Positions 20,522 through 27,922 of a stretch of 64,000 bases of DNA are shown here, piece after piece. The stretch comes from Escherichia phage p000y. Positions within the stretch are counted from its first letter, which is position 1. Each line of letters begins with the position of its first letter. The stretch lies in the sequence record MK047718.1; one strand, written 5' to 3'. Under the pieces are notes generated by a model. The model made no database searches. It was not told where the DNA came from and worked only from the letters and a program-made list of their open reading frames with translations. A program made the position numbers and the translations under genes.

Positions 20522-20556
20522 TTTACAAACTCTTGAGAGCAGAGTATAATGCTCTC
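20522..20556 (+). promoter_or_regulatory. early promoter (TTTACA, 17 nt, TATAAT) with 6-bp inverted repeat GAGAGC/GCTCTC bracketing the -10 (operator-like)
   Basis: Read from sequence; near-duplicate cassette at 50995-51029. Confidence 0.6.
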
Positions 20557-20590: not shown

Positions 20591-21184
20591 ATGAACACAC
20601 TGAAGAAACTTGTTGAATTCATCCGCACTAAACTGGGTACTGCTATGGCTAAAAATCTGACTGTCGAAGAACAGTATAACGCAGCTGCAGATAAGTTGAT
20701 TACCCAGATCAAAGAACTAAAAACGGCTTCTGTTAAATCTATTAATGAAGAAAAACGTATTCGCGAACTTGTTAATGAAAAGAACAAACAAGCCGCTTCT
20801 AAGGAACGTGAAATTCGTAAGCTCCTGGCTGAAGGACAAGATGTTACCATGCATGCTAAGCTTGGTCTTCTGTATCGTCGAACTGCCGAACAACTTAATA
20901 CAAAAGCTGACGGGTACGCCGCTATGCGAATTGAAATTGCTCGTAAGGTGGTTGAACTTGACGATGCTCGTCAGAACCTGGCAATCAAACTCGAATACAT
21001 TCGTGAAACTCGAGCAGCCAATGCCCTTGGTATCTCTACGGCTGATGATGTAATTGAAATCGCTGCACTGACTAAGGTTGATATCGAAGACACTCTGACT
21101 CGTGTTGAAACGTTCAATGGCACTCCAGCTGGCGTCGAAACCACTTCTGCTGATGTACAAGAATATATTAACTCTTTGAAATAA
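20591..21184 (+). CDS. coiled-coil protein, hypothetical
   Basis: ATG 20591 inside track ORF 20549..21184; heptad-rich. Confidence 0.65.
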
Positions 21185-21193
21185 AATAATACG

Positions 21194-21214
21194 GAGGACT
21201 CCGGTCCTCCTTTT
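21194..21214 (+). terminator. rho-independent terminator
   Basis: GGAGGACT-CCGG-TCCTCC hairpin followed by TTTT. Confidence 0.65.
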
Positions 21215-21233
21215 GGATAATAAAGGAGTTAAC

Positions 21234-21836
21234 ATGCGAAACCAAAATAATGATATTGACTCAATGTTCGAAGAGTTCCGAGATAAGGTAAATCCACCTA
21301 CGTCTTTAGTTGATTCATTACGATATGTTGCAACTGGACGTAAATGGTACTGGTCGTCTTCTTATGAGACTACTGAGAAAACGGCTAGCCATAGCAGAAA
21401 ATCTTTATTAGCCCCAGGTATTATGATTCATGATATCGGAGCTATTGCTAAACTAGTTGCAGACCATGATATTAGATTCACTGATTTCGTTGCTCCTACG
21501 TGGTCTGTTTGTTGTTTAAACACTGAATGGGAATATATCAGCGAACGCTCTGAAGATTATTATGGTTTTAGAGATAAGCTTTTAAGGTCTAACATGTTTT
21601 ATATCGATACTGAAGTTCTAGTCGATAATAAAAAATATTACTTTACGTTAATCATCGATTCCGAAACTATGTATGAAGGCAAGCCTTTGCTTAAAAGAGT
21701 TGATGCTTTAAGTGCTATTGATGCGCTTTATGAAACTATGGTTGTTAGTCCTAATTTCACTAACAATTTAATCCTTGAGCAATTTATTATGGAATGTAGA
21801 GAATATGTCAAAGCCAACCCTATACATGCCAAGTAA
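21234..21836 (+). CDS. hypothetical protein ending in FIMECR motif
   Basis: ATG 21234 with AAGGAG SD (track ORF begins at TTG 21213). Confidence 0.65.
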   Translation: MRNQNNDIDSMFEEFRDKVNPPTSLVDSLRYVATGRKWYWSSSYETTEKTASHSRKSLLAPGIMIHDIGAIAKLVADHDIRFTDFVAPTWSVCCLNTEWEYISERSEDYYGFRDKLLRSNMFYIDTEVLVDNKKYYFTLIIDSETMYEGKPLLKRVDALSAIDALYETMVVSPNFTNNLILEQFIMECREYVKANPIHAK

Positions 21837-22200
21837 GCCCTGGGCGTATGAATACAAGCGTAAATTAATCCCAAATGAAGTACTATTTGGCCCTATTTTA
21901 GCTTTAGCATTTTTAATCTTTATGATTATAGGAGCTGTTTTAGATTCTAGTGAAGTTATATCGTCTGATGCAGCATTTTCATTAATGTTCGTCGCACCAC
22001 TTATTGTACCGTTTTTATTAATGCCTATTAATTGGGTAGGATATTGGCACCAAGGCCGTCATCACAGAGCCCGATTAAGAGAATGGAAAGTTCAGTGCGC
22101 AAAAGCCCAAGCTCGGTATGATGAAGCTGTTAAAAAGTATGAATATGAAGAAGCTATGGAATTCGTTAAGGAAATAAGATGCAAAAGCCTCAACTCTTAA
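21805..22200 (+). CDS. membrane protein, hypothetical
   Basis: Hydrophobic segments; start uncertain (21805 or 21826), overlaps upstream gene. Confidence 0.5.
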   Translation: MSKPTLYMPSKPWAYEYKRKLIPNEVLFGPILALAFLIFMIIGAVLDSSEVISSDAAFSLMFVAPLIVPFLLMPINWVGYWHQGRHHRARLREWKVQCAKAQARYDEAVKKYEYEEAMEFVKEIRCKSLNS

Positions 22201-22538
22201 CCGTATGGCCTTCTCTTGGTGAGAACATTCTAATTTTTATTATGAGTATTGGCATGGGATTTGCCTTTGGATTAGTTGGATTTCTTATTGACGGCGTTGT
22301 GTTAGGATTTATAGGGAACACTGGTGGATTCACAGACCAATGGCAGGACTTACGGTATACCCAAGCCTTTGCATCCATCGCATCATTTTGTACTGTAGTC
22401 TATTTTTACTACGATTTTATAAACCACAACAAGAAAAATAAAAAGGTTTACGCTTCTCAAATGATTAGTTATAATGAACTCCTAGCTAGACGTGAAAATG
22501 AAACAATAGAAAACTTTATTAAGGAATGTAGAAAATGA
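22179..22538 (+). CDS. membrane protein with C-terminal FIKECR motif
   Basis: 119-aa ORF, two hydrophobic helices. Confidence 0.6.
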   Translation: MQKPQLLTVWPSLGENILIFIMSIGMGFAFGLVGFLIDGVVLGFIGNTGGFTDQWQDLRYTQAFASIASFCTVVYFYYDFINHNKKNKKVYASQMISYNELLARRENETIENFIKECRK

Positions 22539-22840
22539 GTAAGATTATTGAAATTAAAGTACCAGAGTTTAATGATGCCAAATCCGCTTCAGATGCAATT
22601 TATAAACTTCTGAATCAAGCTGAACGTATCGAAGAAGAAGCAACAAAGATCGCAGACCAATATGCAGTATCGTTTTCTGTAGGTGATTATGGTAGCGGTC
22701 GTACTTATTATCCTAAGGGTGAAATCGTATCCCAGTGGATGAAAGATGAAATTGAAAATAATGGCGGCGATGTTAAGCGTGAAGGTAATGGATACGTTAT
22801 TACTGAAGGTGCTTGGGTTTCGTCTTCTGCGTTGTGCTAA
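22535..22840 (+). CDS. tandem paralog 1 of 3, C-terminal WVSSSALC
   Basis: 101-aa ORF; shares C-terminal motif and junction sequence with the next two genes. Confidence 0.65.
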   Translation: MSKIIEIKVPEFNDAKSASDAIYKLLNQAERIEEEATKIADQYAVSFSVGDYGSGRTYYPKGEIVSQWMKDEIENNGGDVKREGNGYVITEGAWVSSSALC

Positions 22841-22849
22841 GGAATCATT

Positions 22850-23122
22850 ATGTCTAAAGAACAAACCGAACTGGCTGAAGCTGTAGCAAAAATCTATGCA
22901 GCTATTGAGGCTGCCAAAGAAATTGCTGATAAACAAAACACAACATTCAACTTGTACCCAGCTTATGGTATGGGTGGAACCTATCATTCACCCGGACATC
23001 TTAAAGCCGATCTTGAACGTTGTACAAAAAACGGCTATGCTGAATGGGCTGACGTTTACCAATACGACTACAACCTGAGCCTCGAAACCGGTGGTTGGGT
23101 CGCATCTTCTCACACTTGCTAA
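22850..23122 (+). CDS. tandem paralog 2 of 3, C-terminal WVASSHTC
   Basis: 90-aa ORF. Confidence 0.65.
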   Translation: MSKEQTELAEAVAKIYAAIEAAKEIADKQNTTFNLYPAYGMGGTYHSPGHLKADLERCTKNGYAEWADVYQYDYNLSLETGGWVASSHTC

Positions 23123-23131
23123 GGAAACAAT

Positions 23132-23329
23132 ATGTCTCGTGAATTAGATTGTGCTGTACGTACGGCAGTAGCTGCTCTGGAAAACCTGTTCCAAATTGCA
23201 ACAGAAGAACGCGAAGAAGTTACATTATGGATTGAAGATAACGCAGGTCTGAATCTCCAGGACGCGATCTCATTATCCCACAATAGTATTACTGTTCAAG
23301 GCTGGGTATCATCTAGTTATTCTTGCTAA
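23132..23329 (+). CDS. tandem paralog 3 of 3, C-terminal WVSSSYSC
   Basis: 65-aa ORF. Confidence 0.6.
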   Translation: MSRELDCAVRTAVAALENLFQIATEEREEVTLWIEDNAGLNLQDAISLSHNSITVQGWVSSSYSC

Positions 23330-23334
23330 AACAG

Positions 23335-23363
23335 TTTACAACAAGATAGGGCTATGTTATAGT
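23335..23363 (+). promoter_or_regulatory. early promoter cassette (TTTACA, 17 nt, TATAGT)
   Basis: Same cassette type as 16331. Confidence 0.55.
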
Positions 23364-23391
23364 AGTCCTATCAAATTAAATGGAGTCCACA

Positions 23392-23631
23392 ATGATTTAT
23401 TACGAAAGTATCGGAACTGAAGTAGTTGCTAAAACTATTAGTCGTGAAAAGTTTGCAAAGATATTCGATATGCGTTATAAAAAATCTGAACATAAAGGCA
23501 TCCGATTCGAAGATGCGCACTGTACAATTTGCCCTTATAATGAAGACATAAACGGTACAATCGTTCCATTGGTAGAGGCTTCACATGTTGACCTCTGGGA
23601 TGAATATAATATCGCATGTCGTGAAATTTAA
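23392..23631 (+). CDS. hypothetical protein
   Basis: ATG 23392 after GGAG SD (track ORF 23380). Confidence 0.55.
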   Translation: MIYYESIGTEVVAKTISREKFAKIFDMRYKKSEHKGIRFEDAHCTICPYNEDINGTIVPLVEASHVDLWDEYNIACREI

Positions 23632-23659
23632 GTTAATGAATTAATCCGAGGAAAATATT

Positions 23660-24616
23660 ATGATGTTAGTTATTGGTTCTCGTGCACTTCACTATCACGG
23701 TCTTATTGATTCTAGCGCTATTAAAAATAGTGATTGGGACTTTATTGCGGATCAATGTTCTTGGAATGCATTCAAAAATCAAATGATGGGTGTATATGTT
23801 CACCAAGATAACCCTGATGTCCAAGTTTTCAAATGCTTCCATAATGGACGCGAAACTCATTTTGAAGCATATATTGTTCCGGCAATCACTAATGTCCGTG
23901 AATTAGTCGGTGAACTCACTCCTGAAGATTTCACGTCTTCTTATGACCTTTTAAAATACGCCAAGAAAAATTTGACTAAAGACCGTTTGAACGGGTTTTA
24001 CTGGGCAACTCCCGAGATATGTCTTGCAATTAAGATGTCTCATCGTTTCAAGAAAAATAATCCATTCTTTTTAAAGACTATGAATCATATTCAGTATCTT
24101 CGTGGTAAAGGTGTTACACTGAACGATGAACTTACTGAAATTATGCTGAAACGCCAGAAAGAAACCTTGAATTATGCTCACCCAGTTCTTGACACTTCTA
24201 AAAGTGCGTTCTTTAAAGATGACATCTATACATATGACCATGATACTATTCATGAAGCCATTGCACTAACTGACCAGCCTGCTTATAAGTTTTATATGAA
24301 AGAAGGCTCAGAAGTTATGACATCACGCGAGAAGTTCGAATCATTACCAGAAATGGTTAAATTAGCCGGTGTATATGAAGAAGCTTGTGTATTAGCTCTT
24401 GAACGTTCACAGATTCCTAACGACTTTAAAATCCATCCACGTGATAGTTTTATGATGGCCCTTGAAAAGGTCTGTACATCAATCACATCAGGATGGTTCC
24501 GTGAGTTCGCTTGGGAAAATTATAGCAAAGTAGTAAGTATGTACCAAAGCTTAGGACACGACGATTACGTCAAGCGTTTCAAACAAAACTTTCATATGGT
24601 AAAACCTTTCAAATAA
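23660..24616 (+). CDS. predicted nucleotidyltransferase-fold protein (Pol-beta superfamily motif GS...SDxD)
   Basis: 318 aa; N-terminal VIGSRALHYHG...SDWDF fits the minimal NTase motif hG[GS]x(9-13)Dh[DE]. Confidence 0.55.
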   Translation: MMLVIGSRALHYHGLIDSSAIKNSDWDFIADQCSWNAFKNQMMGVYVHQDNPDVQVFKCFHNGRETHFEAYIVPAITNVRELVGELTPEDFTSSYDLLKYAKKNLTKDRLNGFYWATPEICLAIKMSHRFKKNNPFFLKTMNHIQYLRGKGVTLNDELTEIMLKRQKETLNYAHPVLDTSKSAFFKDDIYTYDHDTIHEAIALTDQPAYKFYMKEGSEVMTSREKFESLPEMVKLAGVYEEACVLALERSQIPNDFKIHPRDSFMMALEKVCTSITSGWFREFAWENYSKVVSMYQSLGHDDYVKRFKQNFHMVKPFK

Positions 24617-24629
24617 TTTCACAAAACAG

Positions 24630-24658
24630 TTTACAAGGTCTGTAGTTGTTGATACTAT
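24630..24658 (+). promoter_or_regulatory. early promoter cassette (TTTACA, 17 nt, TACTAT)
   Basis: Read from sequence. Confidence 0.55.
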
Positions 24659-24696
24659 AGACCTATCAAAACAAATGAGTGAATGGAGATATAAAA

Positions 24697-24897
24697 ATGA
24701 CTACTTTGAATAAACGTTTCGGTAAAGCTAAACCTGGTTGTGCAGCAGAACGTCGTTATGTTTTCGCTCAGTTAGAAGATGTAGAGTATCAGATTAATCA
24801 AGTTCACATTACTGGTATCGAGCCTATGTGTGGCCTTGAAGCTCTTCGTGAAGTTCGTGATGGGTATCGTCGTGACATCGAAGAAATGTCAAAATAA
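24697..24897 (+). CDS. hypothetical protein
   Basis: ATG 24697 after GGAG SD (track ORF 24679). Confidence 0.55.
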   Translation: MTTLNKRFGKAKPGCAAERRYVFAQLEDVEYQINQVHITGIEPMCGLEALREVRDGYRRDIEEMSK

Positions 24898-24898
24898 G

Positions 24899-24927
24899 TG
24901 TACAAACTGATAGGGCTATATTATAGT
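24899..24927 (+). promoter_or_regulatory. early promoter cassette (TGTACA, 17 nt, TATAGT)
   Basis: Read from sequence. Confidence 0.5.
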
Positions 24928-24955
24928 AGTCCTATTAAAACATGAGGAGAATATT

Positions 24956-25261
24956 ATGAAATTAGGCGAAACCAACCGAATTGGTCTTTTAACAATATTT
25001 GCATCACCTTTTTACGCAGCTCTTTCTGTTGCAGTATTACAAAAGGCTTACGATATGGATGGTGTTCCTGGTTTTGTATTCTTATCGCCGTTTTTGCTAT
25101 TCGTTGGAGCATTGTTATTATATGCCACGACTAGTTTCGACCATAATGTCTGGGTTAATTATAAATGTAAATTGTCTGAAGAAGAACATGCAGAAGCTCG
25201 TAAAAAAGCTATTGAATCTACCAATCTAGAAAATTTCATTAAAGAATGTCGAGGAAAATAA
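24956..25261 (+). CDS. membrane protein with C-terminal FIKECR motif
   Basis: 101 aa, two hydrophobic helices, GAGGAG SD. Confidence 0.65.
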   Translation: MKLGETNRIGLLTIFASPFYAALSVAVLQKAYDMDGVPGFVFLSPFLLFVGALLLYATTSFDHNVWVNYKCKLSEEEHAEARKKAIESTNLENFIKECRGK

Positions 25262-25262
25262 T

Positions 25263-25949
25263 ATGAATAGTTCTAAAACTTTTAATAGTCAAGCTCGTGC
25301 AGTTGGTAGTTTTGCACATAACGTACAAAATGACCGAATCAAAAATGAACCAATGTTCTTTAATTGTGATTTGGGTTTTGCTTGGGATAATGGTGGCTCA
25401 ATCACTCGTAGCTTTATTGCCAATCTCCCAATTGATTGGACTAATCAACATGTTGTATTTGATTCTCGGGTTCATATGCTGATGCCTGGTTGGTATCCTG
25501 CTATTCCTGGATACCACCATGACGATGTTCCTCGCCCTGATATTCCAGTTGGTCAACACTTTATTACTGCAGGACAACCTGACTATGACAACCCTCGTTA
25601 CCATTCTGAACATATTCTTGGTCTTGTTAACGCTGACGTGTGTCCTACTCATTTTGCAACAGGAACTGCAGAGTTCAGTCAGATTCCTGATGGCGAACTT
25701 ATCTATCGCCAGTGGCACAAAGAAGTCCTCGAAAAAATTGAAAAAGGTGAACTAGAGAAATGGGAAGCTCCAGATCGTACTCTTCTTCAGTTTGATTGGC
25801 AAACATGGCACACTGGTTCTCGTGCAATTAGTAATGGATGGCGTTGGTTCGGACGTGTATCTCGTAATACAGACCGAGTTAAAAAGATTACCAATGAAAT
25901 TCGTGTCAATGCTCAAGTTTATCTGGAATTCCCTATGGAAGGCTGGTAA
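25263..25949 (+). CDS. hypothetical protein
   Basis: 228-aa ORF. Confidence 0.65.
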   Translation: MNSSKTFNSQARAVGSFAHNVQNDRIKNEPMFFNCDLGFAWDNGGSITRSFIANLPIDWTNQHVVFDSRVHMLMPGWYPAIPGYHHDDVPRPDIPVGQHFITAGQPDYDNPRYHSEHILGLVNADVCPTHFATGTAEFSQIPDGELIYRQWHKEVLEKIEKGELEKWEAPDRTLLQFDWQTWHTGSRAISNGWRWFGRVSRNTDRVKKITNEIRVNAQVYLEFPMEGW

Positions 25950-26440
25950 TGATTAACAAAACATATTGGTCTAATATAGACGATGGCAATGAAGGTATTT
26001 CATACTATTCAGTAGATTGGACAGGATGTCCATCCTACTTAGTGAAACATATTTGCCAAGAATTTAAAATCGACCAGCCAGCAGGTATTATCGTGAACAG
26101 ATACATTAATGGATATCAACCTATCGATGAAGTAATACGAACAACTCAAGCTGAGCTTGAAAAGTTTTTCAATAAGTGCCAATGGATAACAGGATGGATT
26201 ATATTTGTACCGTCGGTATGGTTTTTTAGTACTAAGGTGAGTTCTTTCGGTTTTGTTGATATTATTGCTATCTTATTAGCATCTACTATCGTAAGTATTA
26301 TTGGTGGTATTATTGGTGGAGGTACTGTAGGCATCATTATTAATCTTGTTAAAAGTAGTTTACAGGAACGTAAAGACAAGATAAAGGCCAAGAATAATGA
26401 AGTTGAACGTTTTATTACCGAATGCAGGAATTTGAGATGA
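25949..26440 (+). CDS. membrane protein with C-terminal FITECR motif
   Basis: 163 aa, hydrophobic core with G-rich helix. Confidence 0.65.
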   Translation: MINKTYWSNIDDGNEGISYYSVDWTGCPSYLVKHICQEFKIDQPAGIIVNRYINGYQPIDEVIRTTQAELEKFFNKCQWITGWIIFVPSVWFFSTKVSSFGFVDIIAILLASTIVSIIGGIIGGGTVGIIINLVKSSLQERKDKIKAKNNEVERFITECRNLR

Positions 26441-26673
26441 GTATAGCAATTTACATTAAATCAGAATCATGTGATAGTTATCTGTACACATACGATAAAG
26501 ATGTGTCAGAAGAAAAAATCAAAGACGACCTTAATATGGACCTTGATATGTTCTGTCCTATTGCAGATTACAAACTTGCGGTCTCTAATAGTGAAAGTCC
26601 ATCTAAAGAAACGCGCATTGAAGAATTTATGTCCGAATTAATGGCCAAATCATGGGACCGAGATGATGAGTAA
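26437..26673 (+). CDS. hypothetical protein
   Basis: ATGA start/stop overlap with upstream gene (track ORF 26422). Confidence 0.55.
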   Translation: MSIAIYIKSESCDSYLYTYDKDVSEEKIKDDLNMDLDMFCPIADYKLAVSNSESPSKETRIEEFMSELMAKSWDRDDE

Positions 26674-27121
26674 GAAAAATAAAGTGAAAGAACTATCAGC
26701 CGGTATTATTTTCCTTACCGAAGATAAAGAATTATTCATGGGGCGTGTAACTGGTTCTCGTCCTAAAGGTGCATTAGCTCATCGGTGGGATATTCCTAAA
26801 GGACGTGTCGAGCCCGGTGAATCTCCTATTGAAGCCGCTATTCGCGAATGCGAAGAAGAAACTGGGTTTACACAATATGACCCTGCCTTCCTGAAAGACC
26901 TAGGTGAACATAATTACTCAGACAATAAGAATATTCATCTGTTCCTATATACCATCCCTGTAGAGCACGAGCAATTCAGAAACAGTGTTTGTAATTCATA
27001 TCATACATTCCCAGACGGACGACAGATTCCTGAATTTGATGCATTCGCTTTAATTAAACCTTCTCAATGGGAATATGTAATGGGCAAATCATTATATAAG
27101 GTGCTCACTACCCTCCTATAA
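26663..27121 (+). CDS. nudE: Nudix hydrolase NudE (e.1)
   Basis: 152 aa; Nudix box GRVEPGESPIEAAIRECEEETGF; position upstream of e as in T4. Confidence 0.85.
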   Translation: MMSKKNKVKELSAGIIFLTEDKELFMGRVTGSRPKGALAHRWDIPKGRVEPGESPIEAAIRECEEETGFTQYDPAFLKDLGEHNYSDNKNIHLFLYTIPVEHEQFRNSVCNSYHTFPDGRQIPEFDAFALIKPSQWEYVMGKSLYKVLTTLL

Positions 27122-27155: not shown

Positions 27156-27644
27156 ATGAATATATTTGAAATGCTTCGTAATGACGAAGGTCTTAGACTG
27201 ACTTTATACAAAGACACCGAAGGCTTTTGGACGATTGGCATAGGCCATTTAGTAACAAAGAACCCGTCTTTAGCCGTAGCTAAAGCTGAACTTGACAGAA
27301 TGATCGGTCGTAAATGCAACGGTACAATTACCCTTGATGAGGCTGAAAAGCTATTTAATGAAGACGTTGATAAAGCCGTTCGCGGAATCTTGGGTAATGC
27401 TAAACTTAAACCGGTGTATGATTCTTTAGATGCGGTTCGTCGATGTGCATTGGTCAATATGGTCTTCCAAATGGGTGTAGCAGGCGTCGCCGGTTTTACT
27501 AATTCTCTTCGTATGCTTCAACAGAAACGTTGGGACGAAGCGGCAGTAAATCTAGCCCAATCTAAATGGTATCGTCAGACACCTAATCGCGCGAAACGCG
27601 TAATCTCAACATTTAAAACAGGAACTTGGAAAGCGTATATATGA
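27156..27644 (+). CDS. e: endolysin (T4-type lysozyme)
   Basis: [32 protein letters not shown]... near-identical to T4 lysozyme by recall; ATG 27156 inside track ORF 27144. Confidence 0.95.
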
Positions 27645-27922
27645 AAACATATAGTGAATTTTTATCAGAATCTATTCTTAACGAAGCTACCGACACATTT
27701 GCAACTAAGCTAGGTGCAGCTTTGGTTGAAGCTGAAAGTCTATTAGCACGTATTTCTGAACTTGCTAGTAAGATAGATACTCGCAAATTTGAACGTACCA
27801 GCGATATCGCTAAGCTTGAAGCCTTGTTGCGTATGTGCGATAAACCAGAAGAAATCGCTAAGAACGGCTCGCTGATGAAACAACGTCTTGAAAAATATAT
27901 TTCAGGCGCTTCAGAAAAATAG
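27641..27922 (+). CDS. internal-protein-like protein with capsid-targeting sequence
   Basis: [11 protein letters not shown]-terminus; ATGA overlap with e stop. Confidence 0.65.

Follow-up and report, generated by a model that had tools for sequence, protein, structure and literature searches.

The subject of this analysis is a window of 64,000 nucleotides (nt) from Escherichia phage p000y (record MK047718.1), in which a cluster of early genes directly downstream of gene e.6 encodes proteins with a short C-terminal peptide in common. A sequence-only reading of the window had noticed the peptide, x-F-I-x-E-C-R, in four open reading frames (ORFs), and took their products for a family of membrane proteins. 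We find that the peptide is instead a modular tag on many unrelated early proteins, not the mark of a membrane-protein family. It is selected at the protein level, is conserved in at least nine genera and is confined to the gene cluster directly downstream of e.6. Of the explanations considered, we tentatively favour the one in which the tag is a docking helix for a single shared partner. No earlier description of the shared tag was found in the literature searched, which leaves the older T4 literature mostly outside its coverage.

Occurrence of the tag in the window

Might so short a peptide recur by chance? All six frames of the window were scanned with the regular expression F[ILVM].EC[RK]. 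There are exactly four in-gene matches to F-I-x-E-C-R, all on the + strand, all inside 5 kb and each no more than 17 residues from a real stop codon. In 200 mononucleotide shuffles, also read in six frames, the mean was 0.055 matches per 64 kb and the maximum 1. Four copies so close together, each by the stop codon of a real ORF, are therefore not chance, and both the shared peptide in four ORFs and its character as a common C-terminal tag are borne out. The coordinates first attached to the motifs (21234, 22179, 24956 and 25949) are correct as the starts of the ORFs but are not the positions of the motifs. These are given below, under gene names transferred to the + strand from the annotations of phages JS09, MM02, RB69 and T4.

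21774..21800, + strand: tag in e.5, L-E-Q-F-I-M-E-C-R (regex match 21783-21800, QFIMECR)
22506..22532, + strand: tag in e.3, I-E-N-F-I-K-E-C-R (regex match 22515-22532, NFIKECR)
25226..25252, + strand: tag in RB69-ORF133c homologue, L-E-N-F-I-K-E-C-R (regex match 25235-25252, NFIKECR)
26402..26428, + strand: tag in e.2, V-E-R-F-I-T-E-C-R (regex match 26411-26428, RFITECR)
22153-22182, + strand: variant tag in e.4, A-M-E-F-V-K-E-I-R-C

The ORFs had been said to end with the motif; this does not hold for e.5, which runs 11 residues further (EYVKANPIHAK). The count of four also overlooked a fifth, variant copy in e.4 (21805..22200), whose product ends ..EFVKEIRCKSLNS and has the core F-V-K-E-I-R-C. 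When the five proteins (e.5, e.4, e.3, ORF133c and e.2) are compared pairwise, similarity is found only in a tail of 9 to 27 residues. In e.2 the sequence L-E-K-F-F-N-K-C-Q resembles the tag but is internal, at residues 70-78 (26156..26182), directly before the first membrane segment; the other e.2 orthologues seen do not conserve it.

Conservation of the peptide and not of the DNA

Is it the peptide that is conserved, or the DNA that encodes it? The six motif codons of the four window copies are as follows.

e.5: TTT ATT ATG GAA TGT AGA
e.3: TTT ATT AAG GAA TGT AGA
ORF133c: TTC ATT AAA GAA TGT CGA
e.2: TTT ATT ACC GAA TGC AGG

The sequence-only reading had argued from synonymous differences that the peptide, rather than a nucleotide element, is conserved, and the codons agree with it. 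To extend the comparison we used homologous regions of T4, a second Tequatrovirus, Dhaka-, Gapriver-, Kanagawa-, Jiaoda-, Teguna-, Tulane- and Pseudotevenvirus phages and the unclassified Enterobacter phage MY742. The motif is conserved in related phages, as the sequence-only reading would require: it recurs in MY742 and in each genus compared (Tequatro-, Mosig-, Dhaka-, Gapriver-, Kanagawa-, Jiaoda-, Teguna-, Tulane- and Pseudotevenvirus). Examples follow (dots mark a continuing protein; the other sequences end at the stop codon).

T4: e.5 KFVKECREY.., e.3 EFVIDCRKIK
IME08: RFIAECREY.., IFIKECKS, SFIEECRK
MY742: DFVDQCRAN.., KFIKQCRRNQNVS, KFIKGCRNGRN
Mineola: EFIKYCRKRVQK, TWIRSCRK, LFIAKCRAK
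Aeromonas phage AS-gz: MFVDYCRRTAPKRE
Cronobacter phage leB: KFIHSCKKN.., 25 residues from the stop

The e.4 protein of T4 ends KFVKESRCKSQS, and e.4 tails in other genera read FIKEVRRK or FIKNVRRK. Among the e.5-type orthologues, which are only about 18% identical overall, the invariant columns are Met1, one Asn, and the Phe and Cys of the tag, with the Arg nearly so.

Across 28 occurrences in 11 genomes the codons vary freely: Phe is TTT in 20 and TTC in 7, Cys is TGT in 12 and TGC in 16, and Arg is CGA (4), CGC (4), CGT (5), AGA (7) or AGG (5). The hydrophobic residue at position -3, counted from the Phe, uses 12 different codons. In the same set the next start codon lies anywhere from -7 to +37 nt from the tag. 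After the e.5-type tag it is 4 nt away in T4 and RB69 but about 22 nt away in IME08 and, by the annotated e.4 start, in SP18, with no change in the peptide. RNA folding of the four window junctions revealed no common structure (z-scores 0.85, 0.63, 1.18 and -1.87). Since synonymous codons vary, spacing varies and no RNA structure is shared, the conserved object is the peptide. We conclude that the tag is selected at the protein level.

Two database records of the carriers deserve mention. In the reference T4 sequence (NC_000866) e.2 is annotated as 102 aa, while full-length e.2 of Tequatrovirus Sso113 has 162 aa. Two single-nucleotide changes in the T4 sequence, a deletion and an insertion some 75 nt from each other, separate them (T4 67475-67960), and the tag-bearing end of T4 e.2 (..NNFITECRKLK, then stop) lies in an unannotated frame between e.2 and nudE. 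To judge from the sequence, this may be either a genuine disruption or an old sequencing error. In Shigella phage vB_SsoM_113 (3686..4660) a coding sequence labelled 'e.5' spans 975 nt and continues through e.4; the e.5 tag (KFVKECREY..) is in frame with a stop 7 codons upstream, so that this e.5 appears to be frameshifted or fused.

Carriers of the tag in e.6 loci

How widely is the tag distributed, and on what proteins? We retrieved 45 loci from IMG/VR with an e.6 profile (e.6 identity 31% to 100%) and took as carriers those + strand ORFs of at least 45 aa that match [FW][IV]xxC[RK] within their last 40 residues. Downstream of e.6 the pattern is present in 126 of 1021 ORFs, versus 2 of 917 upstream, and both upstream cases look spurious. 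A carrier starts less than 400 nt after e.6 in 43 of the 44 loci with enough sequence. In the exception (IMGVR_UViG_2700989062_000001) short ORFs stand directly after e.6 in place of a tag gene, which suggests a disrupted e.5-type gene. In T4 a relaxed scan covered about 127 kb, with every early region included (the late-gene block at 77.5-119 kb lay outside it). In the e cluster only e.5 and e.3 passed its ORF filter, and the one other match is the unrelated zinc site of thymidine kinase; the separated e.2 tail was seen separately. We conclude that only this gene cluster, directly downstream of e.6, has the tag. When a profile of the tail (33 positions) was run against 1.84 billion representatives, it found the orthologues of the query itself, one spurious ankyrin protein and nothing else; the motif is too short for significance in so large a library.

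The 45 loci encode 122 distinct carrier proteins, 1 to 5 per locus, the Aeromonas and Pseudotevenvirus-type loci having one each. Their extended motif is hydrophobic-[E/N/D]-x-[F/W]-[I/V]-x-x-C-[R/K], usually with basic residues after it. The Glu of F-I-x-E-C-R is not invariant: position +3 is E in 48 of the 122 and otherwise G, Y, D, S, Q and others, which leaves F/W, I/V, C and R/K as the invariant core. At positions that the search pattern does not force, 96% have a hydrophobic residue at -3 (L57, F22, I19, V14, M5), 76% have E, N or D at -2 and 41% have a basic residue at +6. Between the tag and the C-terminus there are 0-25 residues, with a median of 4.

Are the carriers a family of membrane proteins, as had been proposed? 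With their tails removed they fall into 25 clusters that have no blastp link at E < 1e-3. By one measure 67 of the 122 are membrane-like and 55 soluble-like; a segment scan gave 45 with no hydrophobic segment and 54 with two. In the window one carrier of the four is soluble. Since many carriers (45 to 55 of the 122) are soluble and the clusters are unlinked, the tag is a module on unrelated proteins and the proposed family dissolves.

The suggestion that the tag is cytoplasmic fares better. In the two-segment carriers Lys and Arg together average 2.56 over the 15 residues that precede the hairpin and 4.39 over the 15 that follow it, but are scarce in the loop (0.31). A hairpin with both ends inside, flanked on its N and C sides by Lys and Arg, fits 53 of the 54, with a predicted cytoplasmic tail of median length 29 residues; the remaining carriers are soluble. 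The tag of the hairpin carriers is thus predicted to lie on the cytoplasmic side.

A proposed docking helix for a shared partner

What might such a tag do? We propose that it forms the core of a C-terminal amphipathic helix of about 10 residues. The residues at -3, 0, +1 and +4 (hydrophobic, F, I/V and C) would form one face of this helix, and the face would dock into a single common partner. Docking would gather a changeable set of proteins at one site on the cytoplasmic side of the inner membrane. The four positions do fall on one helical face, and the replacement of the Cys by V, I or S in the e.4 family fits a role in hydrophobic contact. In an AlphaFold2 (AF2) model of e.5 the tag lies within a helix, residues 179-194. 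In that of e.2 there are helices at 60-97 and 102-161, and the tail is continuous with the second membrane helix. Alongside the helix in both models, the points in favour are selection on the peptide, the breadth of genera, the confinement to one cluster, the synteny with e.6, the conservation of e.6 and its resemblance to PspA.

If there is a common partner, which protein could it be? The leading candidate, though a doubtful one, is e.6 itself. It is the best conserved protein of the group: window e.6 is 88% identical to T4 e.6, against 47% for e.5 and 36% for e.3 (each compared with T4) and 27% for e.2 (compared with full-length Tequatrovirus e.2). When an e.6 profile was searched against PDB sequences, the top four matches were Vipp1/sll0617, of the IM30/PspA family (best E 0.0062; colinear, 6-140 versus 5-141). 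For three Pseudotevenvirus-type e.6 orthologues the best Pfam family is PspA_IM30 (PF04012), with E values of 1.5e-4, 6.7e-4 and 5e-3. With e.6 as the partner, the membrane hairpins might act like PspB/PspC-type anchors or regulators of a phage PspA-like protein. A whole phage-built counterpart of the host phage-shock system, in which a PspA/ESCRT-III-like e.6 would be recruited or regulated by exchangeable hairpins and soluble proteins through a shared Cys-containing helix, is a further step, and a rather improbable one. Some database records call e.6 a 'host specificity protein', with no evidence attached.

Several observations weigh against the docking helix and against e.6 as its partner. 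Both AF2 models are of low confidence (pLDDT 43.9 for e.5 and 58.6 for e.2) and were read for secondary structure alone; the alignments available for structure prediction were shallow because the homologue searches gave few relatives (3, 14 and 22 hits). Docking itself is argued from sequence. A purely hydrophobic docking face would not usually contain an invariant Cys, which could instead indicate chemistry (metal, disulfide or modification), and in e.4-type tails the Cys is missing from its position. Synteny with e.6 alone is no proof of interaction. In the gap between e.6 and e.5, at 21193-21210, a perfect 7-bp GC-rich stem-loop (GGAGGACTCCGGTCCTCC) is followed by TTTT and is annotated in MM02 as a terminator, and so synthesis of e.6 and e.5 in a fixed ratio is not required. 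The PspA_IM30 scores of the three orthologues, at 17-22 bits, are below the 33.9-bit gathering score, although the matches are colinear (residues 2-144 versus profile 3-146). The Pfam search with window e.6 alone gave no PspA_IM30 match. An hhalign comparison of e.6 with an E. coli PspA sequence lent no support. No Pfam match to PspB or PspC was obtained for e.5, e.4, e.3, ORF133c or e.2, even at E <= 10. Literature searches on e.2 to e.6 and phage PspA, again with the older T4 work mostly beyond their coverage, returned nothing relevant. The likeness of e.6 to PspA is weakly indicated by these profile matches; it is a lead and not a finding.

Why should this matter? Many T4 genes, those from e.2 to e.8 included, still have no known function. 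A tag common to about 25 unrelated families in one conserved cluster offers a common handle on orphan early genes, and identifying its partner could tie a block of them to one inner-membrane process. Were that partner a PspA/Vipp1-like e.6, phages would carry their own membrane-maintenance or -remodelling module with swappable adaptors. In any case the tag can serve as a simple sequence signature by which to annotate these genes in new T4-like genomes.

Alternative explanations

Could the tails bind one another rather than a separate partner? A bundle of C-terminal helices would then hold the carriers together as homo- or hetero-oligomers, with the Cys (as a thiolate favoured by the adjacent Arg or Lys) taking part in intermolecular disulfides or in a shared metal ion. 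The co-encoding of 1 to 5 carriers per locus, the near-universal Cys and the -3/0/+1/+4 hydrophobic stripe, well suited to helix-helix packing, are all compatible with this. So is the second family in the cluster, described below, whose W-V-S-S-S-x-x-C ending makes conserved terminal cysteines numerous there. But the Aeromonas and Pseudotevenvirus-type loci have a single carrier, and therefore hetero-oligomers of carriers cannot be the general rule. Moreover the cytoplasm is reducing, and e.4-type tails have V, I or S in place of the Cys. We regard tail-tail binding as unlikely, though it is the alternative that survives best.

Alternatively the tag might be regulatory: a host protease (FtsH, Lon or ClpXP) might recognise it as a degron, or it might be a switch, sensitive to redox state or modification, by which all the proteins of the cluster are controlled together. 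Its exposed, C-terminal position and invariant Cys-Arg pair would suit such a role, as would the functional heterogeneity of carriers that are nevertheless co-regulated. However, we know of no resemblance between the tag and the known E. coli degrons (ssrA LAA, MuA type, SulA tail), and we hold a regulatory tag to be distinctly improbable.

We give as little credence to a tag that is a relic of ancestry. The carriers would be tandem paralogues without a shared function, and the tail would be their slowest-evolving remnant because it overlaps the ribosome-binding region of the next gene. The genes are indeed adjacent, the hairpins of e.3, e.4 and ORF133c resemble the C-terminal half of e.2 in architecture, and ORF133c weakly matches the orthologue group of e.2. 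In the window the next start codon follows the tag by 0-13 nt. The sequence-only reading was correct that the next gene starts within a few nucleotides in each case: e.4 begins 4 nt after the motif of e.5, there are ATGA overlaps at e.3 and e.2, and the gene after ORF133c begins 1 nt after its stop. Such close starts are ordinary T4 gene packing. Against a relic, the soluble and the membrane carriers have only the tail in common, and both families of Arg codons are in use. Nor does the peptide change where the next start is more distant, as in IME08 and SP18, or where, as in leB, the tag lies 25 residues from the stop.

The sequence-only reading had itself ventured that the carriers are superinfection-exclusion or injection-interference factors, the tag serving that role. 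Small inner-membrane proteins encoded in an early region do recall T4 Imm. Yet the carriers have no similarity to T4 Imm or Sp (the best blastp E value, in a two-sequence database, was 0.4, with alignments of at most 19 residues), and 45 to 55 of the 122 are soluble. They lack family annotation, with no function assigned from Pfam, NCBIfam or PHROG, and the reference T4 e.2 is broken by two indels. This role is very unlikely.

No more can be said for a nucleotide element, such as a Shine-Dalgarno sequence, a translational-coupling signal, a RegA/RegB site, an RNA hairpin or a recombination joint, that merely happens to be translated into the peptide. The DNA of the tag does lie directly upstream of the next start codon, with purine runs like GGA and AGGA, and the ends of e.3 and ORF133c are 21-nt near-repeats. 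Synonymous variation at every conserved codon, extending to CGN versus AGR, stands against it, as do the variable spacing and the lack of shared RNA structure, and we consider the chance slight. A by-product of a ribosome-binding site or operator is ruled out by the codon usage together with the spacing.

Finally, F-I-x-E resembles both the gp21 prohead-protease site (L/I-x-E, cut after Glu) and the EFIAE of the capsid-targeting sequence of internal proteins, and an internal head protein is encoded nearby, but a gp21 site or targeting mimic is ruled out, since only 48 of the 122 carriers have E at +3 (T4 e.3 has Asp), the invariant F, C and R have no role in the gp21 site, and the tag is C-terminal rather than N-terminal.

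Gene order and neighbouring genes

Over positions 21200-26700 the window matches Escherichia phage vB_EcoM_MM02 at 98.7% identity and other Mosigvirus (RB69-like) phages at 94-97%. The order on the + strand is e.6, e.5, e.4, e.3, a Mosigvirus-specific insert (RB69 ORF139c to ORF134c), ORF133c, ORF132c, e.2, ORF130c, nudE and the lysozyme gene e; the order e.6-e.5-e.4-e.3 ... e.2-nudE-e agrees with RB69, JS09 and T4. The principal genes are listed below.

20591..21184, + strand: e.6, a conserved coiled-coil protein of 197 aa, 88% identical to T4 e.6
21234..21836, + strand: e.5 homologue, 200 aa, phrog_2607 (E 1.5e-95), e.5 in the JS09/RB69 annotation
21805..22200, + strand: e.4 homologue, 131 aa, two transmembrane segments (26-44 and 57-75)
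22179..22538, + strand: e.3 homologue, a membrane hairpin of 119 aa, phrog_2330 (E 4.5e-50), e.3 in the JS09/RB69 annotation
24956..25261, + strand: RB69-ORF133c homologue, 101 aa, transmembrane segments 9-27 and 37-55, phrog_9798 (E 4e-68)
25263..25949, + strand: ORF132c
25949..26440, + strand: e.2 homologue, 163 aa, phrog_2203 (E 7e-56)

The carriers match the orthologue groups PHROGs 2607, 2604, 2330, 2203 and 9798 over their full length (E 1.5e-95 to 4.5e-50), and the additional weak match of ORF133c is to phrog_2203. Directly upstream of e.6, at 20522-20550, a strong promoter match of early type (TTTACA-17-TATAAT) ranks first among the sigma-70-like matches of the region. The start of e.4 is placed at the ATG at 21805 because the phrog_2604 alignment begins at residue 11 of the TTG ORF. 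The e.5 homologue is soluble, with zero hydrophobic segments, and its tag lies 11 residues before the stop; e.2 has a soluble N-terminal part, then a membrane hairpin, then the tail. These are already known hypothetical T4/RB69 genes with PHROG families and, apparently, recent Pfam entries, none of them functionally assigned. The e.5, e.4-like and e.2 groups bear the precomputed labels PF26876, PF26873 and PF26896, which the Pfam copy searched does not include.

Within the insert, ORF139c, ORF137c and ORF136c (22535..22840, 22850..23122 and 23132..23329) belong to a second C-terminal motif family, small soluble proteins that end G-x-W-[V/I]-S-S-S-x-x-C-stop. In the window their endings are GAWVSSSALC, GGWVASSHTC and QGWVSSSYSC, each followed by the stop. 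In the 45 IMG/VR loci there are 87 such W-V-S-S-S-x-x-C ORFs downstream of e.6, in 28 loci, versus 4 upstream. RB69 ORF134c (23660..24616), also within the cluster, encodes 318 aa with Pfam DUF7277 and DUF7275 (E 1e-27 and 9e-79). Among the matching records listed, a single one has functional names on its features here, 'nucleotidyltransferase | phytanoyl-CoA dioxygenase | holin', which seem to belong to ORF134c, ORF132c and an adjacent membrane gene; no evidence is attached to 'holin', and the T4 holin is t, at a different locus from the e cluster. Directly after the lysozyme gene an ORF at 27626..27922 (protein 27641..27922) encodes an internal head protein whose start is of the capsid-targeting sequence type.

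Comparison with known systems

How does the tag compare with short peptides of known function? T4 internal proteins carry the capsid-targeting sequence MKTYQEFIAE and the gp21 site. Like the tag, these are short peptides on otherwise unrelated proteins of one genome region and have an F-I-x-E core; they are, however, N-terminal and cleaved after an obligatory Glu, whereas the tag is C-terminal, with a variable Glu and an invariant Cys-Arg. T4 Imm and Sp are likewise small early proteins of the cell envelope, but they have no sequence similarity to the carriers, lie at a different T4 locus and have no tag. The membrane-targeting helices of MinD and FtsA are also short, C-terminal and amphipathic, with basic residues, on soluble proteins that act at the inner membrane. 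Their sequences may vary widely, whereas the F, C and R of the tag hardly vary at all, position -2 keeps an acidic or amide residue, and the majority of carriers have a membrane anchor of their own.

In Psp systems the membrane partners bind PspA through their cytoplasmic regions. The likeness to PspA with PspB and PspC, in the PspA/IM30/Vipp1/ESCRT-III superfamily, would lie in a PspA-like e.6 followed by small inner-membrane proteins with predicted cytoplasmic C-terminal helices. It is limited by carriers that match no Pfam family and are in part soluble, and by an e.6 whose PspA_IM30 match is below threshold; we know of no F-I-x-x-C-R motif in Psp proteins.

The nearest known principle is that of the clamp-binding peptides. 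The gp43 polymerase, gp33, gp55 and other proteins of T4 and RB69 dock on the gp45 sliding clamp by C-terminal peptides. These peptides are acidic-hydrophobic (e.g. ..SLFDMFDF) and lack the Cys-Arg of the tag, and tag carriers, unlike clamp-binding proteins, are mostly membrane-anchored and clustered in one locus. The analogy lies elsewhere: in both cases a short C-terminal peptide is common to unrelated proteins of one phage, and the clamp-binding peptides use it to dock on one partner, as we propose the tag may do.

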